A DNA stretch of 64,000 bases, taken from positions 2,808 through 66,807 of IMG/VR virus record IMGVR_UViG_3300005748_000026; one strand, given 5' to 3'. Shown piece after piece: positions 33,197 to 47,750 of this stretch. The DNA is from a virus. A program made the position numbers and the translations under genes. A model generated the notes under the pieces. It ran no database searches. It saw nothing but the letters and a program-made list of their open reading frames with translations, and was not told the origin of the DNA. Position 1 is the stretch's first letter; each line of letters starts with the position of its first letter.

Positions 33197-33511
33197 ATGA
33201 ACTTACTTAAACAACTTGAAATGGCAAACATTAAAAGTAAAATAGACTTAAATAGTTTGTCAATAGAGGAATTAAACAAGGTTATTGCTGATGCAAATAG
33301 GCTTTTAAGGCTCAAAGAATATGAATCGAGAGTGCAAAGGAAAGAAGCAGCGAAAACCAACCTAAAAATAGGTGACATTGTTACCGTATCAAGCAAAAGG
33401 TTTGATGGTGAAATATGGGAGGTGTTAAAGCTAAATCCTAAGAAAGTAAAATGCAAAAGAGAAAATGGTGAGGTGTGGCATATACCTTATTCAAACATAA
33501 TAATCAACTAA
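33197..33511 (+). CDS. hypothetical protein with SH3/KOW-like C-terminus
   Basis: LKIGDIVTV...VLKLNPKKVKC...W.IPYS. Confidence 0.6.
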   Translation: MNLLKQLEMANIKSKIDLNSLSIEELNKVIADANRLLRLKEYESRVQRKEAAKTNLKIGDIVTVSSKRFDGEIWEVLKLNPKKVKCKRENGEVWHIPYSNIIIN

Positions 33512-33537
33512 CGGCAACACGCCACAACAAACAAGAC

Positions 33538-33732
33538 ATGAAAGTGAGAGAAATATTTGAAGAGAAAATTAAGATTGAGAAGATTGAGAAAGGTATTGGA
33601 GGGTTGGTGGAAATAACAGCCAACACACCATACCAGAGCATTAATATATCATGCTCAAAATCCTACTTAAACTTACTTACAAAAGAATTTTTAGGTAAAA
33701 AGGTGAATGATTTGAAAATATACAAAGGGTAA
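33538..33732 (+). CDS. hypothetical protein
   Basis: its TAA stop forms the first TAAC of array B. Confidence 0.55.
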   Translation: MKVREIFEEKIKIEKIEKGIGGLVEITANTPYQSINISCSKSYLNLLTKEFLGKKVNDLKIYKG

Positions 33733-33842
33733 CGAAAACATATAAGATACGTTGCCTTTTTCGGCAATGGATTTTATACAGTGTTAGCAGTATGTATTTT
33801 TAAACTTTTTGAGCGTAGGATTTAATAACAAAAAAATATAAA

Positions 33843-34250
33843 ATGAAAGTATTTGTAGCAGAAATAAGAGAAAAAGGAAACTACTCGCCAACCGATTACC
33901 ATTGGTGTGATGACAATGATTTGCTTATGTTCGGGCAGTTTCAGTTAGGAAATGGAAACCCGTCAGAAGTAGCGATGTGTGGTATTCAAAGCAGGAAGTT
34001 TACAACCCATATTTTGGTAAAGGACTTAAAAATTGATAAAGACTTTTATCGTGAGTTAATTACTGAAAGTGTAGAAAAAGCAATGGGTTGTACTATTGAC
34101 AGAAATGGTGATTATGAAATTGAGATGGGTTTCTCGCATCATTTTAACATCTACGATATTATGAATGAATTACTTGAAAAAGCAAATCATTTTGAAGATG
34201 GTGAAAAAGTGAAATGCTTTGGTAGAACGCTGAGTGCGGTGGCAGTTTAA
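33843..34250 (+). CDS. cassette B1 hypothetical protein
   Basis: 135 aa, fills the cassette body. Confidence 0.75.
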   Translation: MKVFVAEIREKGNYSPTDYHWCDDNDLLMFGQFQLGNGNPSEVAMCGIQSRKFTTHILVKDLKIDKDFYRELITESVEKAMGCTIDRNGDYEIEMGFSHHFNIYDIMNELLEKANHFEDGEKVKCFGRTLSAVAV

Positions 34251-34383
34251 AAATATTACTGCTAACGATTTGTATATGGTGTGTAGCCGAAGCACCAAAA
34301 TTATTCGGTTAAAAACAAAACATTAATAGGCTATACATTATATACTTTGTTATATTTTAGTGCGGTTAATTAAAAACAGAATT

Positions 34384-34611
34384 ATGAAAAATATAGAGAT
34401 TAAACCAAGAGAAAATGAGAGCAGAAAAGATTATTTAATTAGAGTAGCTGTTGCTTATTTAAAAGAAGTTGACCATACGGGGCAGTTTCAAACAAACTAC
34501 CCTGACACAATTAAATATGATGATGCAGATTGTGATGGGTGTTGTTTAGCTGATGACTTAGAAAATGAGTTTTCTCATATAGAATTTGATGACTTAACAG
34601 GCGAGTGGTAG
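34384..34611 (+). CDS. cassette B2 hypothetical protein
   Basis: YDDADCDGCCLADD motif. Confidence 0.7.
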   Translation: MKNIEIKPRENESRKDYLIRVAVAYLKEVDHTGQFQTNYPDTIKYDDADCDGCCLADDLENEFSHIEFDDLTGEW

Positions 34612-34679
34612 CATTAAATATAACGATTTGTATATGGTTAGTATTACCATTGAATTATAAACGAATTAAATAAATAAAG

Positions 34680-34901
34680 ATGAAAAATATATTAAAAACA
34701 GAAGATTTTAAAGAAGAAGGAATATTAACTATATACGGTGTTATGGGTATGTTGCCTGATGCCGAAAAAGTTGATGAATTGGCTGAAAAATGGTGTGATG
34801 AAAATGCGGAATCTTGGAATGCACAAAACTCTGCTTACATAGCTGGTATGACTGATTTAATTGAAGCAATAAAAGAACTTGGCAAACTAAACAGGTACTA
34901 A
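34680..34901 (+). CDS. cassette B3 hypothetical protein (starts in hairpin loop)
   Basis: ORF reads through the GTT at 34740. Confidence 0.65.
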   Translation: MKNILKTEDFKEEGILTIYGVMGMLPDAEKVDELAEKWCDENAESWNAQNSAYIAGMTDLIEAIKELGKLNRY

Positions 34902-34984
34902 GGCAATTACCCATAACGTATATGGTATGGTGACGTTGCGACCTTATAGCACGAACTTAATTAATAATTACAAAACTTTGAATT

Positions 34985-35281
34985 ATGAATACAGATAGAA
35001 AAAAAACAGAAACCAAGCAATGCACTATACCAAGTGTTAGCGGTAGTTTTATTTTTGATAAGAACTTAATTGAAAGAGCAATGACTGCTGACAAGCCTTA
35101 TTATGCGATAGGTGTTGATACTTATGACAAAAGTAATCTTGCTTATTGCCTTACCCGAAAAATAGATGGTGTGATTGAGGTATTACTATCTAAAACAATG
35201 AGAGACGAAACTGAATTTAAGCAAGATGTTGAAACACTCGCAAAGTGCTTTGAAGCAGATGTATTTACAAGTGGTGACTAA
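34985..35281 (+). CDS. cassette B4 hypothetical protein (starts in hairpin loop)
   Basis: ORF reads through the GTT at 35036 (QCTIPSVSGS). Confidence 0.7.
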   Translation: MNTDRKKTETKQCTIPSVSGSFIFDKNLIERAMTADKPYYAIGVDTYDKSNLAYCLTRKIDGVIEVLLSKTMRDETEFKQDVETLAKCFEADVFTSGD

Positions 35282-35392
35282 ATTACCGCTAACGGTTTGG
35301 CTAAGAAGCGTAGCCACGTAATCACGCTTCATTAAAAGACAAAAAAGTCGCATATCTATGCTTATTAGCTGTTGTTGTGCGCAGTACGGATT

Positions 35393-35587
35393 ATGATGAC
35401 GATAAAAGATTTAAAGAAAAAAATCGCAAACTACCACGATGATATGCCTATTGTAATAGTTCCCGAAAATGATGACAGAGATGAATCACAGGTAGTAATG
35501 ACAAACGAAATGTGGGATAGGTTAAGAACTAAAAAAGCTAACGGAGTATCAAAAAGTGTTGCGATTTTATGCGTGCCGTTCGGGTAG
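35393..35587 (+). CDS. cassette B5 hypothetical protein
   Basis: MTIKDLKKKIANYHDDMPIV, a common small phage-protein start. Confidence 0.65.
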   Translation: MMTIKDLKKKIANYHDDMPIVIVPENDDRDESQVVMTNEMWDRLRTKKANGVSKSVAILCVPFG

Positions 35588-35646
35588 TATTGCGCACAAC
35601 GGTTTAGCTATGCACCGTAAAGCATAGCGTATGGTGTATAGGTGTT

Positions 35647-35848
35647 GTTGTGTGTATGTTAAAATGCGGTAATGGTTGTAAGTTGGTTCGATTCTAACTA
35701 CCGCAACGAGAGAGGTTCGAATCCTCAAACCCTTGTAGTCAGCAGGTGTCGAGTACTGCATTAGCCGAAACAGGTAGTTAGGTTGTAAATGGAGCATGGC
35801 TTTGCAAGGTGACGGCTCGGAAAGACGAGCATTTTTATTACACACAAC
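35647..35848 (+). ncRNA. cassette B6: non-coding structured RNA with tRNA-like T-arms
   Basis: TGCGGTA..GTTGG-TTCGATT-CTAAC-TACCGCA; GAGG-TTCGAAT-CCTC; GCTCG-GAAAGA-CGAGC; no credible sense ORF. Confidence 0.6.
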
Positions 35849-35896
35849 GGAATCGGCTATGCTTAGTGCGAATATTAACGATAAAATTTAATTGAA

Positions 35897-36187
35897 ATGG
35901 AAGATGTAAAACTAACGAAAGAACAAGAGATACTATTTGAGGTATATGATAAAGGTGTGCAAAATGAAGATTGCGACCTAGATGCTTATATTGAAAAGAT
36001 GAAGCAAGCATTAAGTATAGCCAATGTTACCTGCCGTTTTTTATTTATTTACGTAGATGGTGACTACAAGCTAATACAATATGTGGAAGCTAAAAACCAA
36101 GAAGAAGCTGAAAGTAAAATGGAAGAGGGTTGGGCTAGGATTGTTGAACTAGAAGAAGACATGCAAGTTGTTTATAATGGTAGGTAA
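35897..36187 (+). CDS. cassette B7 hypothetical protein (starts in hairpin loop)
   Basis: reads through the GTT at 36026; its stop is the TAA of the terminal TAAC. Confidence 0.7.
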   Translation: MEDVKLTKEQEILFEVYDKGVQNEDCDLDAYIEKMKQALSIANVTCRFLFIYVDGDYKLIQYVEAKNQEEAESKMEEGWARIVELEEDMQVVYNGR

Positions 36188-36229
36188 CTAACATATATAT
36201 TACACCTACTATAACTAATTGATAATCAA
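36186..36229 (+). other. attI-like site, copy 1
   Basis: AACTAACATATATATTACACCTACTATAACTAATTGATAATCAA, between array B and the integrase; exact inverted copy at 40003-40046. Confidence 0.8.
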
Positions 36230-36240
36230 AAAGAAACGGC

Positions 36241-37065
36241 ATGGATATTCCCAACTTAACCGAAAGACTTAGGAGAGAATTAGAGTTTGCTAACTATAGT
36301 AATTCTACAATTAATCAATATGAGTCATGTTTAAAACAATTCATCAATTACTTTAACTCCAAGTATAATGAGCCTAAGAAGATACCTACATCAGCTATCA
36401 AAGAATATGTAACAAGTCTACACGGAATAGCTAAAAAGAAACAGGCTATAGGATGTTTGAAGCTATTCTATAAACACGTTTGTAAACAACCGAAAAAACT
36501 ATCTGGTGTGGCGTATCCGAAAGGAGAGTCAAAGAAAGCAATCATCCTAAGTGATAGTGAACTTCGAGCATTGTTTGGAGCTTGCACTAACCTTAAACAT
36601 AGAACTATTATGGAGGTCATGTATGGTACTGGTGTACGTGTATCAGAACTTCTCAACATCAAACTATCAGATATTGACAGAGCTAATGGAGTTATTCACA
36701 TACATGATGGTAAAGGGTGTAAGCAAAGGCACGTAACATTGTCTTCTAAACTTCTTAGTAGTATTACTAGGTATTGGAGAGCGTATAGGAGTGAGGTTTA
36801 TTTATTTGAAGGTGTGGCGTGTAGAAAATACTCAGCATCAAGCATTAACCAATTCTTAAAGAAGTACGCTGCCAAAGCAGGTGTTAAGAAGCGTATCTAC
36901 GCTCATTTACTACGCCACAACTACACAACTTCTTCTTTAAAAAATGGTGAGAACTTATACATTACCCAAAAATGCTTAGGGCATAAAAGTCCATCTACAA
37001 CTTCTAACTACTATTACCATATAAGCCCTGAGATAGTCTCTGGTGCTTTTCAACCAACAATCTAA
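36241..37065 (+). CDS. IntI-like tyrosine recombinase (N-terminal SAM-like domain + catalytic domain)
   Basis: NYS.STI.QY N-terminus; GTGVRVSE (R), GKG (K), HLLRH, LGH and STTSNYY (Y). Confidence 0.92.
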   Translation: MDIPNLTERLRRELEFANYSNSTINQYESCLKQFINYFNSKYNEPKKIPTSAIKEYVTSLHGIAKKKQAIGCLKLFYKHVCKQPKKLSGVAYPKGESKKAIILSDSELRALFGACTNLKHRTIMEVMYGTGVRVSELLNIKLSDIDRANGVIHIHDGKGCKQRHVTLSSKLLSSITRYWRAYRSEVYLFEGVACRKYSASSINQFLKKYAAKAGVKKRIYAHLLRHNYTTSSLKNGENLYITQKCLGHKSPSTTSNYYYHISPEIVSGAFQPTI

Positions 37066-37070
37066 AAATT

Positions 37071-37172
37071 ATGGCATCAATTATAGGAACAACATTCGCT
37101 TTAATGGCTTTTTGCTTTATCTTAATAACTATTGGTGTGGTGTGTTTCACACTATTAGACCGAGATGAATAG
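37071..37172 (+). CDS. small membrane peptide (33 aa)
   Basis: MASIIGTTFALMAFCFILITIGVVCFTLLDRDE. Confidence 0.45.
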   Translation: MASIIGTTFALMAFCFILITIGVVCFTLLDRDE

Positions 37173-37194
37173 TATATTTGTAAAAACAATTATC

Positions 37195-37407
37195 ATGGAA
37201 AGAAAAGATTACACAGGAGGAAAGAACTTCTTCCAATGGGTTTTAGCCCAAAAGAAATTAGCAGCAGGTGGAGTAATTATACTTCCTTTACTAGCATTAG
37301 TAATGGGATTCCCACTAGAAGCTCTTATCCTAAGTTCAATGACCATCATAACATTTGTTATGCTAGTGTCTCAGTATCGAAAACTTAAAAGAGGATTTAG
37401 AGAATGA
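37195..37407 (+). CDS. small membrane protein
   Basis: two hydrophobic segments; TATATTTG promoter at 37173. Confidence 0.6.
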   Translation: MERKDYTGGKNFFQWVLAQKKLAAGGVIILPLLALVMGFPLEALILSSMTIITFVMLVSQYRKLKRGFRE

Positions 37408-37913
37408 GATATACTATTAGAAAGGGGAGGAACTATTCTTCCCCTATTTTAGCTAAGATTAGAGGTTTTTTTGGTGTGGCATCTTGGAATGTATCATTCA
37501 AAATACCTACTAACTTCAATGTAGCTCAAGAAGATGCTATAAGTAAATTATGGGGAGTTTCCTTAAATGGATACCACCACAAAAACTCTTATAGAATAGG
37601 CATAAGACCTTATTCATCTAACTTAGCTCAACTATACCACTATTCATATCAAAATGGAGAAAGAATATACAAGCCATTTGGAGTTGTTCTTCTTGGTAAA
37701 AAGTATAAGATGAATGTATCCATTAAAAATGGTATGGTAACTATTAAAACTATCGAAGGTAACATTGACCCGATACCAGAGGGAGGTTCTAAATTCCCAA
37801 TCAAAGTGGATAGGATTAAATATGGATATTACCTATATCCTTATCATGGTGGTGAGGACAAAGCAAAAGAAACTATGAAATTTGATTTGAAAATATGCTC
37901 TATCAGAAAGTAA
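37404..37913 (+). CDS. hypothetical protein (possible beta-sandwich fold)
   Basis: 169 aa, aromatic and beta-rich, YLYPYHGG. Confidence 0.55.
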   Translation: MRYTIRKGRNYSSPILAKIRGFFGVASWNVSFKIPTNFNVAQEDAISKLWGVSLNGYHHKNSYRIGIRPYSSNLAQLYHYSYQNGERIYKPFGVVLLGKKYKMNVSIKNGMVTIKTIEGNIDPIPEGGSKFPIKVDRIKYGYYLYPYHGGEDKAKETMKFDLKICSIRK

Positions 37914-38275
37914 AGAAAATAATAGAGTCTTCAAAAGAGGACAATATAAAAGACCACAAAGAAAAGAATCTAGTAAACAAATATGTTTTTGTCTCTTACT
38001 TTGATACGGTAATTTTTGATTTTGTTACTGTTACAATATCTAAAGGGAATACTTATAAAACTGAGGTGGAAATATATTGTCCTAAAACTAATTTTAAAAC
38101 AAGAGGTGTGGCAGACTGCATGATTATGAGGCAATCTGTTCACACCGCTTTTGAATATGCAGGAGTCAAGTTCCTTAGACCTGTATTAGCAAGTCAAAAA
38201 GGAATTGAAGATGCTGTAGCTGCTATTGCTAAAAAACTAAAGCACACAAAACTCCACACCGTAAAGTTACTCTAG
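37895..38275 (+). CDS. hypothetical protein
   Basis: 126 aa; last plus-strand gene before the convergence point. Confidence 0.6.
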   Translation: MLYQKVKKIIESSKEDNIKDHKEKNLVNKYVFVSYFDTVIFDFVTVTISKGNTYKTEVEIYCPKTNFKTRGVADCMIMRQSVHTAFEYAGVKFLRPVLASQKGIEDAVAAIAKKLKHTKLHTVKLL

Positions 38276-38599
38276 TATATACTTATCAAATATATGCTTA
38301 TAGTCTTTATCTAAGGCAAAAGGTATTTCCACTCCTTTTCTTTTTAATTCTTCATGGGTGTGGAGTATTGTTAAAGCAAATCTAGCTAACTCTTCATCAG
38401 CTACCTTAAAACAATTAACCAACCTTTTCATCTCTTGTAACTTATACTCTCTCTTATTAAAGTCTGATTGGCTTAACAACCTTTGATTCAACTTACCCTG
38501 TATAGTCTCCCAAGACTTCTGAATCTTATACTCAAACTTTAGTATCTCTTGACTTAAAGATGTTGTGTCAATATTTCGTTGACTTTCCGTTACTCCCAT
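38267..38599 (-). CDS. hypothetical protein
   Basis: 110 aa. Confidence 0.55.
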   Translation of the reverse strand: MGVTESQRNIDTTSLSQEILKFEYKIQKSWETIQGKLNQRLLSQSDFNKREYKLQEMKRLVNCFKVADEELARFALTILHTHEELKRKGVEIPFALDKDYKHIFDKYILE

Positions 38600-38822
38600 T
38601 TCTTGCTCTGTTTTTAGATTTGTTCTCTAATACATATCCACCAGACTTAGTATGACTTACATCATCACCACCTTTGCCCATAACACCCCTCTTCCTACGC
38701 TCCTTATTTAGTTGCGCTCTATATTTACGTCTCTTAGCTGTGCTATGGTACTTCTTATCGTAGGCAGCTTTCTTTTTCCTAGCCTCTGGATTCTCTTTAT
38801 AATATTTCGCTGATTTCTTCAT
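38568..38822 (-). CDS. small basic protein, degenerate HNH-like
   Basis: GGDDVSHTKSGG...KNRARNG. Confidence 0.55.
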   Translation of the reverse strand: MKKSAKYYKENPEARKKKAAYDKKYHSTAKRRKYRAQLNKERRKRGVMGKGGDDVSHTKSGGYVLENKSKNRARNGSNGKSTKY

Positions 38823-38834
38823 CTAACAAAGATA

Positions 38835-39977
38835 CTACTTAACAGCAAAATACTCTCTAGCTCTATGCTCATCCTTCCTTTTAAATACTACCTCTCCTTC
38901 TTCTCCATACTCTTCCCAATTCATTCTTTGATTATCCTTTAAGGCTTGGAGTAGCTTGTTTTTTAGCTCAGACTTCTTGTTGCGCATCTGAGTTTCTAAA
39001 TCTTTCACCTCAATATACTCGTTCCTAATTTTCAATGTATCTAAGTCTCCTTGAATAACAGACTCTTCTTCAATATTCTTCCACTTATCTTTTAAGAACT
39101 TCTCTTCATTCTCACCGCCTTGTGCTATTGGCTCGTTAGAGTAAATTCTACTCATAATCTCAGCTCTAATATCAGCGTCTTCATTCTCATCATACAAGCT
39201 ATAAAGCTCTCTGCATAATTGTACGTTATCCCAAAATTCTTTCGCTTTTAATAACACCTCAGCTACATCATCCTCTGTAATAGTTACAGATTGAACCTTA
39301 AACTCTCTCTCTACTAAGTATGCTATTTCTCCATAGTCTACCTCCATTACTATACATTGCTCCTTTATCTGGTCAAAGTAGTTTGGCGGAAGTCCTGCTT
39401 CGTACATATCTGATACTATCTTTTTGATAGCCTTACACTCTACAGGGAATGGGTGTGGTATGTTGCTTCCTGTAAATGGGCTTTCTTGATTACCATGAGC
39501 CATGTAGTCAATAGACGCGGATAAGTAAGGGAATTTAGTGTTTACCGCAAAGCAATTAATGTTACGTAACTTTCTTACTTCAACACTATTTACAATGTTA
39601 TCTATCCAAGACTCCACACCATCATAATGCTCCCAATACTTTCCAATTATAGGCTCTGCAAATCTTCCGTATATAGTATCTGCATTATTGAATTGAGGTG
39701 GTATCTCTTTAAACACTTTCTCATGCCATACTTTTAGAGTAGAACCATACTTATTATTCCCAAGTACTGTACCTATCTCAGAACTTCCAATTACTTCTGT
39801 TCTAAAGTCAAGCCAATCATAATTAATGTTATTTGTACCTTCTATAAATTGAGGGATGTAAAATCCCCATACTGTACCTTTAATTCTCTTTGCATATCCT
39901 GAGAATCTTTCTAAGTGTGATAATTCTTCTGGTAGTTTCATAATATTTAGGTATTTACCCCAAGTTATTTGTGACAC
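38835..39977 (-). CDS. YqaJ/lambda-exonuclease-family recombination nuclease
   Basis: WL.FR...IGSSEIG.VLG, YLSASID, VECK, then Q. Confidence 0.85.
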   Translation of the reverse strand: MSQITWGKYLNIMKLPEELSHLERFSGYAKRIKGTVWGFYIPQFIEGTNNINYDWLDFRTEVIGSSEIGTVLGNNKYGSTLKVWHEKVFKEIPPQFNNADTIYGRFAEPIIGKYWEHYDGVESWIDNIVNSVEVRKLRNINCFAVNTKFPYLSASIDYMAHGNQESPFTGSNIPHPFPVECKAIKKIVSDMYEAGLPPNYFDQIKEQCIVMEVDYGEIAYLVEREFKVQSVTITEDDVAEVLLKAKEFWDNVQLCRELYSLYDENEDADIRAEIMSRIYSNEPIAQGGENEEKFLKDKWKNIEEESVIQGDLDTLKIRNEYIEVKDLETQMRNKKSELKNKLLQALKDNQRMNWEEYGEEGEVVFKRKDEHRAREYFAVK

Positions 39978-40002
39978 TTGGGAGTTTTAATGTTCTTTCG
40001 TA

Positions 40003-40046
40003 TTGATTATCAATTAGTTATAGTAGGTGTAATATATATGTTAGTT
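40003..40046 (-). other. attI-like site, copy 2
   Basis: exact reverse complement of 36186-36229; abuts array C. Confidence 0.8.
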
Positions 40047-40048
40047 AT

Positions 40049-40438
40049 CTACAAGGCTAACTTTGTGCTATCATAAAGAATATTTCCCAACTTAATACAA
40101 AAACGCACTTCATCATCTGCACCCCATTCTTTATTTCCTTTACCAATTCTTATTCCATCAAATTCAACTACCATTGTAGGTGCGTTTTTTGCGTAACCGT
40201 TTTTAAAAACAATTTTATCATAAGGTATAAAGGCGTGGAATGGCTCTTGTAAACTCATATCTTTTAATCGCTTAATCCAGTAGTCTTTTATTTCTCTATA
40301 TTCTTCTTTCTTCACGCCTTTTGAAATCATATCGAACCATTGTTTTTTAAGGGTCATGTGTAAAATCCGCCCAGTAGATAACAATGTATATAATTCAGGC
40401 TGTGCATCTGCTTTTTTATAATCTTCTGTACTTATCAT
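40049..40438 (-). CDS. cassette C1 ASCH/PUA-like domain protein
   Basis: LHMTLKKQWFDMI.KG.KKEEYRE...YW..RL ... F.NGY. Confidence 0.75.
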   Translation of the reverse strand: MISTEDYKKADAQPELYTLLSTGRILHMTLKKQWFDMISKGVKKEEYREIKDYWIKRLKDMSLQEPFHAFIPYDKIVFKNGYAKNAPTMVVEFDGIRIGKGNKEWGADDEVRFCIKLGNILYDSTKLAL

Positions 40439-40508
40439 AGTTTTGTATTTATCTGTTATTTAATGGCTTTAAAAACGCCCGAAATCATATACTCAACGTT
40501 ACCCACCA

Positions 40509-40715
40509 TTAGAGTCCCTGTTCTAAGGCGAGTTTGGCAGCTTCACCCTCTTTGAGCATTTTCTTTAATCCTTTAAGGTCGTCTTGCCACGCATGGTCAG
40601 ATTGATACTCGCCACTTGCTTTATGCTTTCCATTTATAGTAATACTATAATCGAATGTGTAGTACCATTGGTCGGTATCTATGTTTGTAATCTCTACTTC
40701 TATTGTTGTTTTCAT
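40509..40715 (-). CDS. cassette C2 hypothetical protein
   Basis: 68 aa, fills the cassette body. Confidence 0.7.
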   Translation of the reverse strand: MKTTIEVEITNIDTDQWYYTFDYSITINGKHKASGEYQSDHAWQDDLKGLKKMLKEGEAAKLALEQGL

Positions 40716-40798
40716 TTCTTAAATTTTAACGGTGGGTAACACTATATAAAAACAAGTTCGTACCTCACCAGATTTTTATACTCAACGTTGTGTGTAAT

Positions 40799-40885
40799 AG
40801 GTGGGGATTGGATTCGAACCAATGCAAGTACCAACCATTTTTCAGGTCATTCCTACCACAGGTCAATTACGGTAAACGCCCACCT
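40799..40885 (-). ncRNA. cassette C3: tRNA-like RNA
   Basis: minus strand AGGTGGG...ATTGG-TTCGAAT-CCAAT-CCCCACCT; D and anticodon regions are irregular. Confidence 0.55.
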
Positions 40886-40931
40886 ACTACTAAGCCTTTC
40901 GGCACACAACAAAAGCTATAAATAATAAATA

Positions 40932-41081
40932 TTACTTACCATTTTTGTAAATAAAATGCAGAAGCAACCAACCAAAGGCATATCCCTTTATAACATCTTT
41001 GTCCCATTTTGTACCAACACTAGCCCAATATGGTAGTATACTTATTTGTGGTTTTAATTCTAAATAAAATCTAACTTTCAT
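40932..41081 (-). CDS. 49-aa ORF nested inside an attC-like loop
   Basis: translated by hand: MKVRFYLELKPQISILPYWASVGTKWDKDVIKGYAFGWLLLHFIYKNGK. Confidence 0.5.
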   Translation of the reverse strand: MKVRFYLELKPQISILPYWASVGTKWDKDVIKGYAFGWLLLHFIYKNGK

Positions 41082-41133
41082 ATTTCGTAATTTTTAAAAT
41101 TCATAGCCAAATACGTTGTAGGCAATAGCCTTG

Positions 41134-41382
41134 CTAAAGTTCTTCACCGCATTTAAGACATTTGTTTATTTCCCCATTGCATTTACTCATTACCGAAGCA
41201 AAAGGGTGTTCGCAAGGCAACTGTTCGCTTTGCCCTACAACACTGTGTAAACGTAATTGCTCAAGCATATAATCGTAAGCAGTATCGTTTATTTGTTGTC
41301 GCTTTTCTATTGGTACTTCTGCTAAATCAAATAGCTGTGCTAATATTCCAATCGCTTGTTTTTCTAATTTGTTTTTATCCAT
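41134..41382 (-). CDS. cassette C4 hypothetical protein with C-terminal Cys cluster
   Basis: starts in the hairpin loop and reads through the site (LRLHSVVGQSEQL); CEH...C....CLKC. Confidence 0.65.
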   Translation of the reverse strand: MDKNKLEKQAIGILAQLFDLAEVPIEKRQQINDTAYDYMLEQLRLHSVVGQSEQLPCEHPFASVMSKCNGEINKCLKCGEEL

Positions 41383-41429
41383 AATATTCGTTTTTAATGT
41401 CGGTCAAAAACTACCCATATCTGTTTACG

Positions 41430-41684
41430 TTAATCAGATAGTTCTTTAGCTTTATTCTCATACCACTTAGCCTTTTCTAAATCTCTCTCTATAGGTTGGT
41501 GTGGCTTGTTTCCTAATCTAAGTCTATACTTAAATGCACACATCTCACAATGGGCTATGAACTTATCCTTTCCCCATACCTTTAACATCATTTCCCAAAC
41601 TTCTATACTTGAGTTCTTGTAATGCTCTGGATTGACATAATCATAGTTCTCACTATCAATATTCCTTGACATGAAATCTCCCAT
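41430..41684 (-). CDS. DUF3310 (SaV-like) protein
   Basis: VNPEHY..., AFKY..R.G.K....DLEKA.WY. Confidence 0.8.
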   Translation of the reverse strand: MGDFMSRNIDSENYDYVNPEHYKNSSIEVWEMMLKVWGKDKFIAHCEMCAFKYRLRLGNKPHQPIERDLEKAKWYENKAKELSD

Positions 41685-41685
41685 A

Positions 41686-42204
41686 CTAATTAAATCTTGG
41701 CTCTTGAAACGACAAAGACTTCATAACTTTTTTGTCTGACTCTCTTCTAACTATCCAAAAGCTGCCATTCCTTTGAATGTAACAATCTATCTTTTCATTA
41801 GGCTTATTTGGGTGAGTTCCGTTTCCGTATGCTTTTACAGTATTTCTTGCTTCATCTATAGTCTTACATAGCTTGGACATATTAGACTCGTAAACAGCCT
41901 CAGTAACGTCTTTAATATCTATATTGCAGCACTCCATTAACTGTATTAGACTAAACAATACATCAGCACCACCATCTTTAACTTCTCTTACGTTCCCCTC
42001 CATTAAAGCGGTCATCAATTCATCTACTTCCTCATTAAGCAAGTCAACACATGAATTAATTACATCATTTTCTGGCATGGATGGTCTGCCGTCTGATAGT
42101 TTTAATCCAAATACACTTCTCCAATGCCTTACTAAATCTACTACGTCTCTTTTCTCGTATTTACCTATTGTATTCATCTCTTCTGATTCTTGTGTTATGT
42201 TCAT
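41686..42204 (-). CDS. MazG-like/all-alpha NTP pyrophosphohydrolase
   Basis: LLNEEVDEL, DGGADV and VYESNMSK motifs. Confidence 0.8.
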   Translation of the reverse strand: MNITQESEEMNTIGKYEKRDVVDLVRHWRSVFGLKLSDGRPSMPENDVINSCVDLLNEEVDELMTALMEGNVREVKDGGADVLFSLIQLMECCNIDIKDVTEAVYESNMSKLCKTIDEARNTVKAYGNGTHPNKPNEKIDCYIQRNGSFWIVRRESDKKVMKSLSFQEPRFN

Positions 42205-42923
42205 ATACCGAAGGCTTGTATTGTATGTTTAAAAGGATTCCCTTCAATGTTTTTAACGGCATCAACCATATCAGATGCTATTTCTCTAATCTCTAACTGA
42301 GCTGCATCATCTCTCCTTAAACTTATAAAGTTGTAAAAGCAACTCATATTCATCATTACAGATAATGTTATTTGAGAGTTCATTGTCTTGAAGTACCTAG
42401 CAGATTCCTTTGCTCTTTTTCTGCCTAAAATTGGGGTTAATTCTTTTAATGACTGATGGTATAAGGCATTGCCTAACTTAGTGTACTCTTCTAAAACTTT
42501 ACTCCAATCAGTCCACCCTTTTCCATTTTTAAAATTTGTTGAAGTATCATCTCCGATGAGATAACCTTGAGTCATTGTTATAGGTAAATCACAAGTAATG
42601 CCTTTCCAATCTTTTGGAATGTAGTATTTATCATGCTTTAATTCCTTGTACCTAGCACTCTCTCCATTTATATTAGCTAAACGATGCTTGATGGCATGAA
42701 TATGTGAAGCCTGCTCGCATACTATATTAAACTCTACTATACCTCTTTCAAATGGAGATTTATGGGGATTGCCTGAACTATTGTTCCATAGTTTCTCATT
42801 AATAAGTACTCCAATTTCTTCATCTGTTTTAGAGTCTACCTCTATTTGAGTAGATGTCCAAGCTGCTCTTGCTATAGCTTTATCTCCACCATACCAACCT
42901 ATTAACTCAACTTCATTTACCAT
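42201..42923 (-). CDS. thyX: flavin-dependent thymidylate synthase
   Basis: HKSPFE, KHR....NGESARY and R....AQLEIREIA motifs. Confidence 0.88.
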   Translation of the reverse strand: MVNEVELIGWYGGDKAIARAAWTSTQIEVDSKTDEEIGVLINEKLWNNSSGNPHKSPFERGIVEFNIVCEQASHIHAIKHRLANINGESARYKELKHDKYYIPKDWKGITCDLPITMTQGYLIGDDTSTNFKNGKGWTDWSKVLEEYTKLGNALYHQSLKELTPILGRKRAKESARYFKTMNSQITLSVMMNMSCFYNFISLRRDDAAQLEIREIASDMVDAVKNIEGNPFKHTIQAFGI

Positions 42924-43126
42924 TCCTTTCTCAAGTATTTCCTTTTTATTTCTTCTGGGTCTCTTCCTTTCTTGTAACTGATTACCATACCATTAACCAC
43001 AATAGTCTCTAAATCATCTTCATTAACCTTAGATTTTAATTCCTCTAAGTAAATTCTTGAGGCTGATTTCTCTTCTTCCTGTTCGGTGTTCTTTATCATA
43101 GTATTAGATGTAAAAAGGGGCAGCAA
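42917..43126 (-). CDS. hypothetical protein
   Basis: short ORF; true start probably at MIKNTEQ. Confidence 0.5.
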   Translation of the reverse strand: MLPLFTSNTMIKNTEQEEEKSASRIYLEELKSKVNEDDLETIVVNGMVISYKKGRDPEEIKRKYLRKEW

Positions 43127-43146
43127 TACACCACCCCTTATTAGTA

Positions 43147-43425
43147 TTACTCAGCTTTCTCTTCTTCTACACTACTCTTTAGTTTAGAATTTAATTCCTC
43201 CAACTCTTTAGCTGCCTTAGCATAAAACTCTGACATCTGTGTTAAGAAGTCTGGATGAACTCGCATTTCAACTATGCTAAACTGAGGAACTAACTCAATA
43301 TCATTCTTTTTGTTTAACTCTGCTGATACGCTCTCTACTGTTTGAGATACATTTACATAAGGAGATAACCCTTTTTCTGTTTTTTCGTAAACAATTCCGT
43401 AAGATACTGTTCTTAAATGATTCAT
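43147..43425 (-). CDS. hypothetical protein
   Basis: 92 aa, coupled to the ERF gene. Confidence 0.6.
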   Translation of the reverse strand: MNHLRTVSYGIVYEKTEKGLSPYVNVSQTVESVSAELNKKNDIELVPQFSIVEMRVHPDFLTQMSEFYAKAAKELEELNSKLKSSVEEEKAE

Positions 43426-44078
43426 TTCTTTTTTGGTTTTGATATTAACGTTTTGAATTTTCTTTTCTCTGCATCTGTAGTTGATATAACATCGTCTATA
43501 GTTTTGTACTTACCTTCTGTTAAGCCTTCTATGTCTGATTCTTTATATCCTCCCTTCATTAGTAATGCAGTTAGTACTTCTTTTGCTCCCGCTTTTGGTG
43601 TGGCAGGTTGCTTTGGTGTGGCAGTTTTGTTTGAGTTTGATGTCCTATTCTTTAAGTCAGGGTCATTCTCATCAGTTGGAATACCAAACAAGTTAAGCCA
43701 AAAGTATCTTTGACCATAAGTGTAAGCAGAACCTACTCCTTGCTCCTCATTATTACAACCGCTTGAGAACCACGGAATCTCAACAGACTCATTATCCTCA
43801 GTATCAACGATAGTATATACCATTGATATAGTGTATAGGGTTTCGTGCTTAATTACCGTCTCTCCTGTTTTGTTGTTTATCTTCTCGCCAGTAACTACTC
43901 TTTCATAGCTAGAATCAACAACTCTTGGAAATACAAATAAATTATGCTTTTCCAATAAAGGATTTACTGTAGATAGTATGTTCATTCCACTTACATACTT
44001 GTATCCGTAACCAGACTTATCCTTCTTTAAGAACGGAAGTTCCCCTTTTACTTTTAATAACTTAGCGTGAACTGCCAT
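43422..44078 (-). CDS. ERF-family single-strand annealing protein
   Basis: YGYKY, GSAYTYGQRY..LNLFGI.TDE.DPD. Confidence 0.85.
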   Translation of the reverse strand: MAVHAKLLKVKGELPFLKKDKSGYGYKYVSGMNILSTVNPLLEKHNLFVFPRVVDSSYERVVTGEKINNKTGETVIKHETLYTISMVYTIVDTEDNESVEIPWFSSGCNNEEQGVGSAYTYGQRYFWLNLFGIPTDENDPDLKNRTSNSNKTATPKQPATPKAGAKEVLTALLMKGGYKESDIEGLTEGKYKTIDDVISTTDAEKRKFKTLISKPKKK

Positions 44079-44080
44079 GA

Positions 44081-44416
44081 TTAAAATGGTAAATCGTCCT
44101 CAGTTTCAGCTTGTGGTTGAATGTCGGCAGTTCCTCCAATCATCTGAACGCCTACTGCCTTCAAAGAATTAAAGTACTTTGTTCCATCTTTACCATCCCA
44201 CTTTCTACCTCCTACATAGAAAGCAACTTCTACTACAGAATTTAATTCTGCCTTGTCTACTTCACTTCCTTTTTCTCCCCACAATTCAAACTTAATGTGG
44301 TTTGGATAGTTAGAGTCTAGGTCTTTACCTAGAATAAACTCTGTCTTTGTAGTTTTACCTACTTGAATTGGGTCTTGAACTTCTAACAAGACTCCCTCGA
44401 TTTTAAACGGTGTCAT
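44081..44416 (-). CDS. DUF3127-type single-stranded DNA-binding protein
   Basis: V.F.VGGRKW.G....YFNSL; acidic DDLPF tail. Confidence 0.8.
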   Translation of the reverse strand: MTPFKIEGVLLEVQDPIQVGKTTKTEFILGKDLDSNYPNHIKFELWGEKGSEVDKAELNSVVEVAFYVGGRKWDGKDGTKYFNSLKAVGVQMIGGTADIQPQAETEDDLPF

Positions 44417-44419
44417 AAT

Positions 44420-44740
44420 TTACCTGTTTTGATTATATACTTGTTTTAACTTTTCTTTCTTGTCATACACCACACTCCAGTCACATTTCATTCTTTTAGC
44501 GTAAGCCTCTCTTTGAGCTATTGTTCCTGCATCTAAAAGGTTATGCTCCTCAAATGTCAAAAGCATGATGTTATCCTTGTTTAATCTTTCGGATGAATAG
44601 TACCCTTTGTTTAGAAGGTGAGCGAAATTACTTACGTTAAAGTATGGTAGATATATGCCAGACAACTCACTCTTATGAGGTCTTTCATTCCATATCTCTT
44701 TAAACATCTCTAACTCGCCTGTTTTCTTACGCCTTTTCAA
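44420..44740 (-). CDS. HNH-like small nuclease
   Basis: IWNERPH.SELSG...FAHLL.KG.Y....LN..NI.LL...EH. Confidence 0.55.
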   Translation of the reverse strand: MKRRKKTGELEMFKEIWNERPHKSELSGIYLPYFNVSNFAHLLNKGYYSSERLNKDNIMLLTFEEHNLLDAGTIAQREAYAKRMKCDWSVVYDKKEKLKQVYNQNR

Positions 44741-45326
44741 AAGCTAGTAATGTTCTGTTATCAACTCTCCAATAATGCTCTCCCTCTACTAATATATCGT
44801 AGTTAGGATGAGAACCGAAGTAACACTTATCTCCTGACTCTACTCCTTCCTCTTCCATTTCTGGGCTTGGGTGTGCCATGTTGCCATACTCCATTATATA
44901 CTCAGGCTTGTTTTCAACACCAACAATTCCACTATCACTTTCATAAATCTCTCTTTTAATAGGCTTAATCAAGTTCCAATTAGGCATAGTTATCAACTCA
45001 CCATCTCTAACTATGCAATATACAGAAGCACCTCTTATTTCATATAGAGTTTCGTTGTCAAACACTATTTGTTGGTCTTCTCTCAATCCATTATGAGTGA
45101 AATAGACCTTATCTCCTTCTTTAATTTGTGGTATCTTGGCTGTAGGATATTTTACAATACCAAATTGCCTTACGTACTTGTAATTAAATGGGTCAAATTT
45201 AGTGTCTATAACTAAATCTATCTCATTACCATCTTCGCCTTTTATTGAAACAGTATCGTTACGCTCTTTATCTACGTCAACGTATATGTATCCATTGATT
45301 GCTCTGAAATTCTCTGTTGTATTCAT
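44727..45326 (-). CDS. tandem GroES-like protein
   Basis: two GroES-like repeats (IKEGDKVYF; ESDSGIV..VESGDKCYF). Confidence 0.6.
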   Translation of the reverse strand: MNTTENFRAINGYIYVDVDKERNDTVSIKGEDGNEIDLVIDTKFDPFNYKYVRQFGIVKYPTAKIPQIKEGDKVYFTHNGLREDQQIVFDNETLYEIRGASVYCIVRDGELITMPNWNLIKPIKREIYESDSGIVGVENKPEYIMEYGNMAHPSPEMEEEGVESGDKCYFGSHPNYDILVEGEHYWRVDNRTLLAFEKA

Positions 45327-45363
45327 AACTTATTTTAGCTGCAATTTAAAAATAATATTCTAT

Positions 45364-45834
45364 CTACGAAAATCTATGTGACTTTTCTCTAAAATATCTA
45401 GCCCTAGTTTCTACTTGTATTTTTTTATCTAAATGTGTACCTATCTCTTGCCCTACTTCTATTGGGTCGTATCCTAACTTTAAATACTTTACAATGTCTT
45501 GCCCCTCATTATCTAAATACTTCTTCAACAACTCTACTTCCTCTCTCTTTTGTTGCCTTGTTAATTCGTATAATTCGGTGTCGGAGTCTGGGGTTAATGT
45601 TTCTTTATGTTGTGGTATGTTGCTTGCATACAAAGTACTATCCCACTCCCATTGATTTAAAACAGAAGTAGCTTCTTCTTCAATATCACACCACACCAGA
45701 TAGTCCTCGCAGTCAACTTTAATTACATTTCCATTCTGCACATGAACATCTAAGTCTAATGTATTACCATTAACATCAAACTTTACTGAGAAAACTTTAG
45801 TTGTAGTTTTTAGTATGTCAGATATTATTCTCAT
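45364..45834 (-). CDS. hypothetical protein
   Basis: 156 aa. Confidence 0.6.
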   Translation of the reverse strand: MRIISDILKTTTKVFSVKFDVNGNTLDLDVHVQNGNVIKVDCEDYLVWCDIEEEATSVLNQWEWDSTLYASNIPQHKETLTPDSDTELYELTRQQKREEVELLKKYLDNEGQDIVKYLKLGYDPIEVGQEIGTHLDKKIQVETRARYFREKSHRFS

Positions 45835-46319
45835 CGTATTTGCTTGCTTGTTGGTGATTTTTTTGTTGGCTTCTTCAACTCCATCATTCTTTTTACATCA
45901 GCCCTATAGTCTGTTGTGTAATATTTCTGGTTAATATACTTGGATAAACTAGCAGGCTCAGGAACGAAAGAACCTTCTTCCTTTTTAAGCTCTCTATACT
46001 TTAACTCAATAGCGTAGACTTTCCTTAGATGTGGAACTACCTTACTATAGTCTTTAATCTTCTTTTTAAGATTACTCCACTCTACATCTAATCCTCTCTT
46101 TGTTCCAATATACATTAGTCTGAATAAATTAAACTCTTGTTTAAGTTCTGATTCATTAGTCTCTTCTGTTTTAACGAATCCATATTTAGTTAGCTTAAAT
46201 GTTCCCTCAGAACTTACCCATTCATTATTTCCCATATCCATCATACCTAGATGTTGGGCTAAGTCTAAATAGCATTTGTTTTCGTACATGGTGTGGTGTG
46301 TTAAAATTAGAAAGCTCAA
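45831..46319 (-). CDS. putative replication-initiator-like protein
   Basis: F..F..MY..TKRG ... FVPEPASLSKYINQKYY resembles replisome-organiser C-termini; start uncertain. Confidence 0.45.
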   Translation of the reverse strand: MSFLILTHHTMYENKCYLDLAQHLGMMDMGNNEWVSSEGTFKLTKYGFVKTEETNESELKQEFNLFRLMYIGTKRGLDVEWSNLKKKIKDYSKVVPHLRKVYAIELKYRELKKEEGSFVPEPASLSKYINQKYYTTDYRADVKRMMELKKPTKKSPTSKQIR

Positions 46320-46352
46320 GAGTTAACTTTCTAAAATAAATATGTTAAATAC

Positions 46353-46396
46353 TTGATAGTTAGTTGGTTGGATTAGATGCACTATATATGTTAGTT
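46353..46396 (-). other. attI-like site, copy 3 (diverged)
   Basis: 33/44 ungapped identity to copy 1, first 14 nt identical. Confidence 0.75.
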
Positions 46397-46702
46397 AGTG
46401 GCAATTAAAATGACTAGCTACTACCTACGCCATATTTGGTATGCAGTTTTTTTGCTGCGTATATTTCTTGTTTTTGCTTTTCAGATATTTTTCTGTAAAA
46501 CGTTGAACGGTTTATACCAAATTTGGCTAAAGCATCACTTATATTCCATCCTTCTTCAACTAATTTAAGTATCGAAGAATAACTGCCACTAACACTATGT
46601 AAAGTGCATTGCGTAGTAGTTTTGTTTTTGTTTTTGCTCATAATATTTAAGTTTTATTCTTTGTTTAACATTGGTGCAGCAACGCACCTTACATTCAACG
46701 TT
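46394..46702 (-). mobile_element. integron-like array D (single cassette)
   Basis: GTTAGTGGCA 46394/TGCCACTAAC 46593; hairpin arms ATGTAAAGTGCATTGC/GCAACGCACCTTACAT ending at GTT 46700-46702. Confidence 0.85.
46414..46641 (-). CDS. cassette D1 HTH protein
   Basis: WNISDALAKFGINRSTFYRK; starts in the hairpin loop. Confidence 0.7.
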   Translation of the reverse strand: MSKNKNKTTTQCTLHSVSGSYSSILKLVEEGWNISDALAKFGINRSTFYRKISEKQKQEIYAAKKLHTKYGVGSS

Positions 46703-47138
46703 AATTATGCTTGTAAAATATGAATGGGGCAGCTATTTCACTTAGCCTTACAAATTTCCCTTTCTCTTCAAGAACACAATCTATTACACCATCATTATTC
46801 TCTAAAAATACAATCATGCTTTCTTCTATAGCTCTTGCTGTATTTACCTTCTTTTCTGAATCTTCAACTTCTTTGGAAAATAAATCTATAAGTCTTTGGC
46901 GAGTATTTGGTGTGGCAGATAAGAAGTCTTCCTTAGTAAAGTCTCCAGATAAATAAAGCTGCAAAGATTCAAACCTGCATATAAGGTCTGTTAAATCATC
47001 TCTCATTCTAACAACCTCAGTTTCAAACGAAACATCCTCCAATAATGATTCAAGCCTACTTCTTTCCGATAAGTCTTGAGTAATTGTTCTTAAACTATCT
47101 TTTAAGCTCTCTATTGTATGAGTGTAAAATCCTTCCAT
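46701..47138 (-). CDS. hypothetical protein
   Basis: 145 aa; its TAA stop forms the first TAAC of array D. Confidence 0.65.
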   Translation of the reverse strand: MEGFYTHTIESLKDSLRTITQDLSERSRLESLLEDVSFETEVVRMRDDLTDLICRFESLQLYLSGDFTKEDFLSATPNTRQRLIDLFSKEVEDSEKKVNTARAIEESMIVFLENNDGVIDCVLEEKGKFVRLSEIAAPFIFYKHN

Positions 47139-47410
47139 TATGAAATAGTATATGTGTTATCTATGTTTTTAGTCATTACTGGTACTCCTGTTAATTTCTT
47201 AACATTATGAGTAAGCATCCTCTTTTCAAATTTATTTCTCTCTAACTCTCTTAATAAATGGTTTCTCTTTTCAATACAACAACACCCATCCTCAGTAAAC
47301 AAACCATTAATCATACGCTCTTCAACATTGTCAAGAAGACTTCTGATGTCTTTTATTTGAGAATTTAAAACATCCACCTCTTCCCGTTCTTTTTTATTCA
47401 GAGACTTCAT
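47138..47410 (-). CDS. hypothetical protein
   Basis: 90 aa, coupled. Confidence 0.55.
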   Translation of the reverse strand: MKSLNKKEREEVDVLNSQIKDIRSLLDNVEERMINGLFTEDGCCCIEKRNHLLRELERNKFEKRMLTHNVKKLTGVPVMTKNIDNTYTIS

Positions 47411-47750
47411 CTTCTCTAAGTATTAAGTTAGTTCCGTTTCTCATAACCTCTGATGCTTCTGCTAATGTAAACAACTGACTAGGAGTTATCTTACCTATAT
47501 TCCTAGCAAGTATATCAAAGGACTTTGAAACCTCTACATAAGTATCTGAGTTTCCTTCGTATATGGCTTTACCATAGTCATCCATGATACTCTCTGCTGT
47601 CTTTAAAAAGTTGTTGGCTGAGTTTTTGAACTTATGCTTAAAAACCTTATACCCAGAAAGCTCGTCATAAGCCTCTAAAAATGCTTGCGCTCCCAATACA
47701 CTCATGGTTACATAAAGCATCTCCCTTTTAATCCTATCCTCTCTTGTCAT
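47394..47750 (-). CDS. hypothetical protein
   Basis: 118 aa. Confidence 0.6.
   Translation of the reverse strand: MTREDRIKREMLYVTMSVLGAQAFLEAYDELSGYKVFKHKFKNSANNFLKTAESIMDDYGKAIYEGNSDTYVEVSKSFDILARNIGKITPSQLFTLAEASEVMRNGTNLILREDEVSE

Follow-up and report, generated by a model that had tools for sequence, protein, structure and literature searches.

An attI-like candidate insertion site, in three copies, at the ends of hairpin-cassette arrays in a marine phage genome

We describe a 44-nt sequence (the 44-mer) that recurs at the ends of arrays of small gene cassettes in the genome of a marine phage, IMG/VR record IMGVR_UViG_3300005748_000026 (66,807 nt, completeness rating 100%). Bases 2808-66807 of this record, a stretch of 64,000 nt, form the window that was analysed, and positions are counted from its first base. 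On balance, and with somewhat better than even confidence, we read the 44-mer as an attI-like insertion site of a phage platform that resembles an integron and would operate independently of the integron integrase IntI. The copy next to the gene of an Xer-like recombinase (site B) would be the original, an identical inverted sequence (site C) its copy, and a diverged sequence (site D) a looser copy:

36186-36229, plus strand: site B, exact 44-mer, with the last cassette of array B directly 5' and the recombinase gene 3'
40003-40046, minus strand: site C, identical inverted copy, after the last cassette of array C and before a YqaJ-type exonuclease gene
46353-46396, minus strand: site D, 33/44 copy, after the lone cassette of array D and before ORF152 and an SSB/Erf operon

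Sites B and C agree without a mismatch, where 100 shuffles gave no match, and site D is identical at 33 of 44 positions, a score found in none of 20,000 random 44-mer pairs from the window. The first 14 nt, AACTAACATATATA, are common to B, C, and D and have exactly these three occurrences in the 66,807-nt record. The first-pass annotation of this DNA had placed two identical copies and one 33/44 copy at the gene-downstream ends of three arrays; coordinates and identities were reproduced, and the 44-mer starts at the TAAC crossover in three of the four arrays. Neither exact nor degenerate scanning matched the 44-mer to anything in IMG/VR or JGI metagenome contigs, and a near-copy at 50429, AACTTACATATATA, was rejected as no more than chance expects.

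Cassette arrays and the sites that end them

The arrays are four stretches of small open reading frames (ORFs), in which every ORF is flanked by its own inverted repeat:

25322-27774, plus strand: array A, five cassettes (25322-25650, 25698-26621, 26739-27134, 27215-27424, and 27541-27763)
33783-36188, plus strand: array B, seven cassettes given from R' start to R'' end (33783-34266, 34349-34624, 34740-34917, 35036-35293, 35374-35600, 35647-35848, which is tRNA-like and non-coding, and 36026-36188)
40044-40910, minus strand: array C, cassettes 40382 to 40044 and 40740 to 40498, and a tRNA-like cassette from ~40910 to 40790
46394-46702, minus strand: array D, one cassette (R' at 46593, R'' at 46394)

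Pairs of the form GTT+6 / 6+AAC at distances of 90-1300 nt number 23, compared with 8.7 (maximum 17) in 50 shuffles, and cluster in these four arrays. All 15 curated cassettes begin with TATATAC-nnT-GTTA-N6, the base before GTTA being T in 15 of 15, and end with (TAAT)-N6'-TAAC; in the 11 non-terminal cassettes, TAAC is followed by G and, mostly a few bases further, by a TATA(T/G)-type box. The variable bases of every R' match the R'' of the same cassette, which is the pattern expected if circular cassettes with a folded site exchange at the AAC/GTT core. The stretch from R'' to the next R' spans ~66-138 nt, and six of the ten stretches between cassettes are predicted to fold with TAAC-G..stem..loop..stem..T-GTTA paired at the base; only two of these six folds beat shuffles, and the stem sequences vary from stretch to stretch. 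In array D, a complete upstream hairpin, read by eye, reaches TCAAC at ~46702.

Integron attC sites are imperfect R''-L''...L'-R' hairpins of ~57-141 nt with AAC/GTT cores. The arrays described here are real attC-like cassette arrays with this R''-L''...L'-R' anatomy: 15 cassettes carry GTT[AG]-N6 / N6'-[TC]AAC ends together with the span and fold pattern, as judged from arm pairing, spans, and folds. The cassette ORFs of B, C, and D point toward the site, and in B toward the recombinase gene (int); the integron arrangement, with cassette ORFs transcribed away from attI and intI by a platform promoter, is not found. As a separate observation, the G after TAAC would, in the folded site, oppose the T before GTTA at the inner edge of the R box, with spacers of 5 versus 3 nt.

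The 44-mer departs from the cassette pattern at a single defined point. Its opening AAC is part of the last cassette's own R''-type arm, and the site proper begins with the base that follows (36189-36229 in B). The junctions read GGTAGG-TAAC|TAACATATATATTAC... in B, TGTAGA-TAAC|... in C, and TGCCAC-TAAC|... in D, and the base after TAAC is T in all three 44-mers versus G in 11 of 11 non-terminal R'' arms. After this T, each of the three carries a TATAT-type box and no L'-R'. By eye, N6-TAAC, spacer, and TATAT-type box can be read as the ~11-bp arms and 6-8-bp spacer of a dif-like core, though the inversion is loose. At site B, the recombinase ATG lies 52 nt from the end of TAAC and 11 nt from the end of the 44-mer.

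The earlier statement that the sites lack a matching hairpin arm was borne out on both strands. Folds of B, C, and D as single-stranded DNA were no better than shuffles in the sense direction (z = -1.24, -0.39, and -0.98), those of the opposite strand were likewise unremarkable (z = -0.96, +0.38, and -0.03), and a search for L'-R' (TATA..GTT[AG]) on the relevant strand, over ~150 nt downstream of each site, returned no match. A short return arm seen by eye in B and D found no support in the folds. Array A ends, as had been noted, in a weaker half site, TAAC-AACTGGC-TATA (AAC-N7-TATA, 27761-27774), where the fold is not significant.

Evidence for movement of the cassettes came from a marine metagenome, here called X1, the single public run matching parts of the region, whose Logan contigs (share of words 0.09) were compared with 33000-47500. 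Its contigs cover cassette regions only, and 96% of them continue into unlike sequence. One piece, 34625-34917, is a full unit from the base after one AAC through the next AAC; other pieces stop at 34269, 35848, and 40501, the last of these mapping to 40281-40501. A further contig is 100% identical over 40043-40310 and unlike beyond, so that the cassette proximal to site C is joined there to something other than the 44-mer. The cassettes are mobile, each unit being bounded by TAAC; for this, the contigs of this single run give presence and boundaries, not mechanism.

Several features of individual cassettes are recorded here in their own right. A PAPS-reductase-like gene (25696-26610; phrog_424, 3.6e-53) makes up one cassette, with arms GTTAGTAATAAT and ATTATTACTAAC. 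The arm pair TGTTGTGCGCAGT ... ATTGCGCACAACGG is shared by cassettes 26739-27134 and 35374-35600, whose ORFs (128 and 71 aa) look unrelated. The two tRNA-like cassettes, 35647-35848 (plus strand) and ~40790-40910 (minus strand), have no ORF and carry the same arms (GTTGTGTG.. and ..CACACAAC), T-arm motifs (GGTTCGATTC and GGTTCGAATCC), and an acceptor-like stem; neither ARAGORN nor Rfam (gathering thresholds over the whole window, E up to 1 over 35500-41000) found anything, and a 158-nt X1 contig matches 35691-35848 with one difference. In five cassettes, a long ORF begins within the inner hairpin and reads across L'-R' into the cassette (34680-34740, 34985-35046, 35897-36035, and, on the minus strand, 40438-40374 and 46641-46584), with leader peptides that are homologous between arrays (MKNILKTEDFKEE / MISTEDYKKA; ..QCTIPSVSGS / ..QCTLHSVSGS); translation may start inside the inter-cassette element.

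The recombinase, its proximal site, and cassette turnover in relatives

Site B stands directly before the following gene:

36241-37065, plus strand: int, a 274-aa Xer-like tyrosine recombinase (Pfam Phage_integrase 6.5e-32, SAM-like N-domain)

The best NCBIfam model for int is XerA_Arch, at 188.2 bits (cut-off 220). The protein stays below the cut-offs of the integron-integrase models (TIGR02249, 131.5 versus 265, in two stretches; PRK15417, 83.8 versus 435) and of XerD (137.7 versus 329.6) and XerC (135.1 versus 335). Among PDB structures, XerA (5hxy) compares best, and IntI4 (2a3v) aligns only to residues 11-174, the N-terminal half. By model scores, length, and this partial alignment, int falls outside the IntI clade, whose members have an extra domain specific to them; judged from its sequence, it is Xer-like and neither an IntI nor a Xer equivalog. 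Because int lies outside that clade, the term attI denotes an analogy here and not membership.

To place site B among its relatives, we drew on a profile search of IMG/VR, in which the best 80 of at least 126 int relatives were kept; two partial matches and four loci with less than 75 nt upstream were left out, leaving 74 loci, 60 of them distinct. A [TC]AAC ends 48-54 nt before the recombinase ATG in 48 of the 60 distinct loci (6.2% at random positions), at 64-70 nt in five, and is absent in seven. For the 50 loci with at least 400 nt upstream, this AAC has a perfect GTT+6 partner in 32 and one with a single mismatch in 15, compared with 42/1200 and 176/1200 in controls. The family consensus reads TGCxxC-TAAC-TAC-TATATGTA .. 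TATAA .. AATAAAATCAA .. ATG, which can be shortened to TAAC-N3-TATATGTA ... TATAA ... AATCAA, and site B aligns with it. Its first half, TAAC-TAA-CATAT(AT)ATTACAC, aligns with, for example, TAAC-TCC-CATATGTATTCCACAC, and its second half, TATAACTAATTGATAATCAAA, with TATAACTAAATGATAATTAAA of one locus (L145); since both halves align, the recombinase-proximal site conserved throughout the family has its orthologue in site B.

The same layout was present in all of the first-found homologues (~37-40% identity), which comprise four IMG/VR loci, five metagenome loci, and two contigs from metagenome-assembled genomes, of Flavobacterium and Segetibacter. Cassettes of the form GTTA-N6...N6'-TAAC precede the recombinase gene and share its orientation, and the last one ends in TAAC-N3-TATATGT(A/G)... 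~50-54 nt before the ATG. The isolated Polaribacter phage Leef_1 carries a recombinase 30% identical to int, four such cassettes, and, 54 nt before int, the site AAAGC-TAAC-GCCCC-TATATACGCACC...TTATAATCAAAAATAAAAACT-ATG. Strict cassette pairs are enriched ~100-fold upstream of int (six in 14,211 nt over seven loci, compared with one in 255,416 nt over 18 control loci and one in 42,103 nt downstream of int).

Searches for further sites also yielded candidates that were set aside. A scan with the family 16-mer TAACNTGTATATGTAC gave 78 loci and was uninformative, with only one true family locus (the L006 contig) and two with a weak recombinase-like match. Four cassette-ending 16-mer matches, in two near-identical pairs, had no int homologue at the locus and looked like chance; a site-motif match in L030 at 2083 (minus strand), within a 521-aa ORF, was taken as chance. 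As a side observation, the annotation of Cellulophaga phage Ingeline_1 (L027) includes a pair of integrases: the larger is encoded at the start of the locus, and the smaller, Xer-like and 263 aa long, where the early genes end. This suggests that the small enzyme is not the lysogeny integrase.

Turnover of cassettes beside the site, for which the first-pass annotation had proposed a check of relatives, is visible in nine contigs from nine metagenomes (L131, L133-L135, and L137-L141). Their site and recombinase are ~100% identical over 600 nt, and upstream of TAAC they split into four unrelated classes (21-47% identity), three of which recur in two or three contigs each; the break falls exactly at TAAC|. 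Contigs L137 and L138 share cassettes that are 98-100% identical and differ in order and in distance to the site, and the edges of the shared blocks coincide with TAAC. One cassette directly adjoins the site in L138, ...attactgcTAAC|TATTATATGTA, whereas in L137 it leads into a regular TAAC-G hairpin site, ...attactgcTAAC|GTTCTGGCGG. From the conserved upstream genes to the site, the arrays measure ~5.0, 2.7, and 1.7 kb in three of the phages.

Because unrelated cassettes meet an identical site at TAAC, the junction of the last TAAC with the site appears to be active in the family and to behave like attI. For the phage described here, whose own recombinase is ~38% identical to that of the nine contigs, we presume an active cassette junction. 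Of the first-pass description of the sites as attI equivalents, the part concerning B is supported by orthology and by the turnover in relatives; attI in the strict sense is not, given the class of the recombinase. Downstream of the site, 6.8-8.9 kb of L133, L134, and L138 agree at 99.98-100% identity, and L133 and L138 have wholly different arrays, with genes upstream of the array ~80% identical (92.5% in one 483-nt block). As far as these alignments go, the recombinase-proximal site also marks a boundary at which phage genomes are mosaic.

Relation of the copies, proposed working, and alternative explanations

The similarity of B and C extends beyond the 44-mer, in the form of a longer inverted repeat:

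36180-36273, plus strand: left arm, 94 nt, 80% identical, including int codons 1-11
39959-40052, minus strand: right arm, with a decayed int 5' remnant in the exonuclease leader

Between B and C, the core agrees at 44/44 positions, the next 44 nt at 26/44, and the upstream sequence at 17/40; none of 20,000 random pairs reached 26/44 (binomial 1.2e-5). The 44 nt past the core hold, in B, the leader and int codons 1-11 and are non-coding in C, where the ATG has become ATT. The N-terminus MDI.. is common to the recombinase family, and this, with the int 5' remnant in C, indicates that B is the original and C a copy carrying the start of int. The first-pass annotation had proposed that copying of the site seeds satellite arrays far from the integrase; the part that stands is that C is a copy of B, on the remnant and the 44/44 core. 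Site D agrees with B at 33/44 positions in the core and at 18/44 downstream.

A parallel exists in one relative, L175, which has a second, inverted copy of the site (8330-8480, minus strand) beyond int at a distance of ~8.1 kb, identical over the first 17 nt. This copy is preceded by a methylase-like gene (DPFMGSGTT motif, by eye) ending in ...TAAC, and a truncated int-like ORF of 34 codons lies 51 nt downstream. The parallel would fit equally with copying of the site and with C as the relic of a second platform.

In the model that we favour, assembled from these comparisons, the platform would work according to the following principles:

(i) A cassette unit runs from just past one TAAC to the next TAAC and contains the inner hairpin (L''...L'), T-GTTA-N6 (R'), the ORF, and N6'-TAAC (R''). 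A circular cassette with a folded R/L hairpin would be exchanged at TAAC.

(ii) The first half of the 44-mer would act as ordinary duplex DNA, made up of the TAAC crossover box, a short spacer, and the TATAT-type box. The second half, an A/T-rich block (TATAACTAATTGATAATCAA) whose position relative to the recombinase start codon is conserved, probably doubles as the regulatory region of the recombinase.

(iii) New cassettes would join between the last TAAC and the site.

(iv) Site B would be the original, C an inverted copy that took along the first ~33 nt of int, and D an older or looser copy, each now standing at the growing end of its own array.

We infer that the recombinase would bind these sites, that duplex DNA would be its substrate, and that B, C, and D would be active in this phage today.

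Several observations weigh against this model. Cellulophaga phage phi19:1, the sole nucleotide match among isolated phages (a 200-bp stretch at 84% identity), has a homologue of the C-proximal cassette whose end, TTGTAGT-TAAC-TACCATATATA, is the last point of similarity; the 11 nt that follow TAAC are thus not unique to the 44-mer and may simply be how a cassette ordinarily ends. In the 24 kb of the phi19:1 record examined (L008), the scans for cassettes yielded no further one, and this record is not among the tblastn matches listed or tallied; a hairpin read by eye after its cassette gained no support from folding. Array A lacks a terminal 44-mer. Second copies of the site are rare, with one convincing case in the 53 family loci scanned, and the family recombinases are only 33-43% identical to int. 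Searches of IMG/VR, JGI metagenome contigs, and GTDB genomes turned up nothing closely related to this phage, the best recombinase match being 43% identical. The breaks at TAAC would also arise by homologous exchange in conserved boxes, and the 44/44 core beside a 59% flank needs a further cause, such as selection, gene conversion, or recombination between copies. Lastly, a promoter, operator, or leader would fit equally well with the A/T-rich second half and with the strict spacing (48-54 nt) between site and recombinase ATG.

This last point leads to the view that the 44-mer is only a promoter or operator, co-regulating int, the exonuclease gene, and the run from ORF152 through SSB to Erf, with the cassettes ending where the next regulated unit starts. 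The three downstream units (recombinase, YqaJ exonuclease, and the operon that includes SSB and Erf) could form a regulon, a TATAA box stands ~30 nt upstream of the recombinase ATG across the family, TTGATAATCAA reads as a palindrome of the type bound by dimeric regulators, and a weak sigma-70-like ATTACA-16-GATAAT (9/12) lies within B and C. Against this, a sigma-70 scan of 35800-46800, whose models do not include Bacteroidota-type promoters, gave 32 sites compared with 42.6 in shuffles, so that spaced hexamers above chance, as expected of a host sigma-70 promoter, are not found. Bacteroidota promoters use TTTG / TAnnTTTG, which are not seen in the 44-mer, and the window contains the second-half motif about as often as shuffles do (14 versus 13.4). 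All three copies sit within transcription blocks, at array ends, and the distance to the downstream start codon varies (C, ~25-61 nt; D, ~33-63 nt). A purely regulatory element leaves unexplained both the exact abutment of cassette TAAC and 44-mer in all three copies and the meeting of unrelated cassettes with an identical site at TAAC in relatives. We regard it as unlikely as the whole explanation; a promoter or operator role may exist alongside insertion.

Equally improbable, in our estimate, is that C and D are passive relics, either duplicated array ends left over or a second platform that lost its recombinase, functionless, with B alone active if any copy is. The decayed int remnant in C, the truncated int ORF behind the second site of L175, the 11 altered positions of 44 in D, its TATAAC box included, and the shortness of arrays C (2-3 cassettes) and D (one cassette) all agree with decay. 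A core kept at 44/44 beside 59% flanks, by contrast, would come about with a probability of ~0.59^44 under neutral decay, so the core is constrained or homogenised, and C and D still adjoin a cassette whose own arms pair perfectly or nearly so.

Least probable of the three is that B and C delimit a 3.86-kb int-exo module that inverts or moves, serving it as inversion sites or terminal repeats rather than capturing cassettes, with D a solo end: the inverted repeat is perfect over 44 bp, extends to 94 nt, and brackets convergent int and exo, its 44/44 core beside 59% flanks suggests ongoing exchange between B and C, and the geometry of L175 is alike, but one site per locus is usual (52 of 53 scanned family loci have no convincing second copy, and TAACNNNTATATGTA occurs singly in each of G001, G003, and G004), inversion would leave both array ends as before with no obvious consequence, D has no partner, and run X1, whose only cover of 36388-39775 is a trace at depth 1.35 within the bin 37356-37839, is silent on either orientation.

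Genome context, known systems, and implications

The genome is laid out in three blocks. Structural and packaging genes, including portal, large terminase, and a DnaB-type helicase, occupy the minus strand from 59 to 24582; a block of small ORFs lies on the plus strand (24676-38275); and a second minus-strand block (38267-63949) holds the YqaJ exonuclease, a MazG-like protein, the Erf-type annealing protein, SSB, and a thymidylate synthase-like ORF, taken as ThyX by eye. The genes next to sites C and D are:

38835-39977, minus strand: exo, YqaJ-type exonuclease gene (Pfam YqaJ 2.3e-13), downstream of site C
45831-46289, minus strand: ORF152 (152 aa), downstream of site D, opening a gene run that includes SSB and Erf
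44081-44416, minus strand: SSB, in the same run as ORF152
43422-44078, minus strand: Erf, in the same run as ORF152

A single-protein search with the exo product found no relatives of the phage, and ThyX matches, at no more than 70% identity, came only from unrelated larger phages without the site motif. Elsewhere in the window, a 2156-aa ORF (57479-63949, minus strand) has no PHROG match at 1e-5, the motif AACACACCACACC stands directly 5' of ATG starts (28693-28715, 46280-46302 on the minus strand, and others), and the heptamers GGTGTGG and CCACACC recur 32 and 18 times.

Compared with integrons, the system shares a good part of its anatomy. A hairpin-free site immediately upstream of the recombinase gene, with the AAC/GTT crossover box that it shares with the cassette sites placed at the first-cassette junction, is the arrangement of attI and is found at B only, C and D lying far from the recombinase. 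In the sense of the recombinase gene the junction reads ...N6'-TAAC | site | ATG, like attI beside intI, and, as at attI, different cassettes adjoin an identical site in relatives. The cassette sites resemble attC in their R''-L''...L'-R' order, in spans of 66-138 nt, and in variable R' bases that match their own R''. Unlike an integron, the platform lies in a phage genome, its recombinase is a 274-aa Xer-like protein under the IntI cut-off whose match to IntI4 is limited to the N-terminal half, its cassette ORFs point toward the recombinase gene, the paired variable part of the R box measures 6-10 nt instead of 4, and there are three copies of the site, of which two lie far from the recombinase. 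The attI1 features used in this comparison are general background or come from passages of PMC9892861. Taken together, the sequence comparisons portray a system that would be integron-like in its working, with attC-type cassettes, a recombinase-proximal site, and shuffled arrays, and that differs in two defining features, IntI and the direction of the ORFs.

Among other tyrosine-recombinase systems, pdif modules of Acinetobacter plasmids rely on XerC/D of the host, and their 28-bp duplex sites have neither inner hairpins nor paired arms specific to each cassette. The present system resembles Xer/dif and pdif in its Xer-type tyrosine recombinase, its short sites, and modules bracketed by inverted copies; unlike pdif, the recombinase is phage-encoded and located where the array ends, and the hairpin anatomy of the sites is attC-like. 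With Cre/loxP and the shufflon (Rci/sfx) it has in common a site beside the tyrosine recombinase gene, and the inverted B/C pair could support inversion; in contrast to these, the family norm is a single site adjoining a variable cassette array, not paired sites.

The closest precedent in phages is that of CALINs, clusters of attC sites lacking an integrase, which have been described in virulent phages, including Polaribacter phage P12002L of a flavobacterial host, and whose attC sites IntI1 was shown to recombine (Qi et al. 2023, PMC9892861). The passages of that paper on CALINs report no dedicated phage recombinase and no attI-type site, and the words Cellulophaga, Flavobacter, Bacteroid, and Xer are absent from its main text. 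Its 17 CALINs may overlap with the present family. Both are attC-type arrays in phage genomes; unlike the CALINs, the arrays here come with a recombinase and an attI-like site. In the parts of Bartlau et al. 2021 (PMC8776804) that concern them, the Leef and Ingeline integrases are treated only as signs of a temperate lifestyle. No description of an Xer-like recombinase with attC-type arrays in phages appeared in the literature searched.

A wider proposal, to which we give slightly less than even credence, is that a widespread family of Bacteroidota phages, comprising at least 126 IMG/VR loci and Leef_1, carries an analogue of the integron that evolved without IntI. Its small Xer-like recombinase would use a conserved duplex site 48-54 nt upstream of its own start codon to capture hairpin cassettes that point at the recombinase; in the phage described here, two extra copies of the site would let one recombinase serve three arrays, and the B/C pair could flip the int-exo module.

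Integrons are defined by IntI and regarded as bacterial, and phage attC clusters have so far been described as integrase-less orphans. If the proposal holds, cassette capture would have arisen, or persisted, outside the IntI clade, and phages would have machinery of their own devoted to exchanging small accessory genes, among them PAPS reductase, methylases, and many ORFs of no known function. The CALINs of flavobacterial phages would gain a cognate enzyme, and multiple copies of an insertion site in one genome would offer a simple route to several arrays under one recombinase. The system is open to direct testing, as Leef_1 is an isolated phage with a known host and the same layout, and the parts are short.

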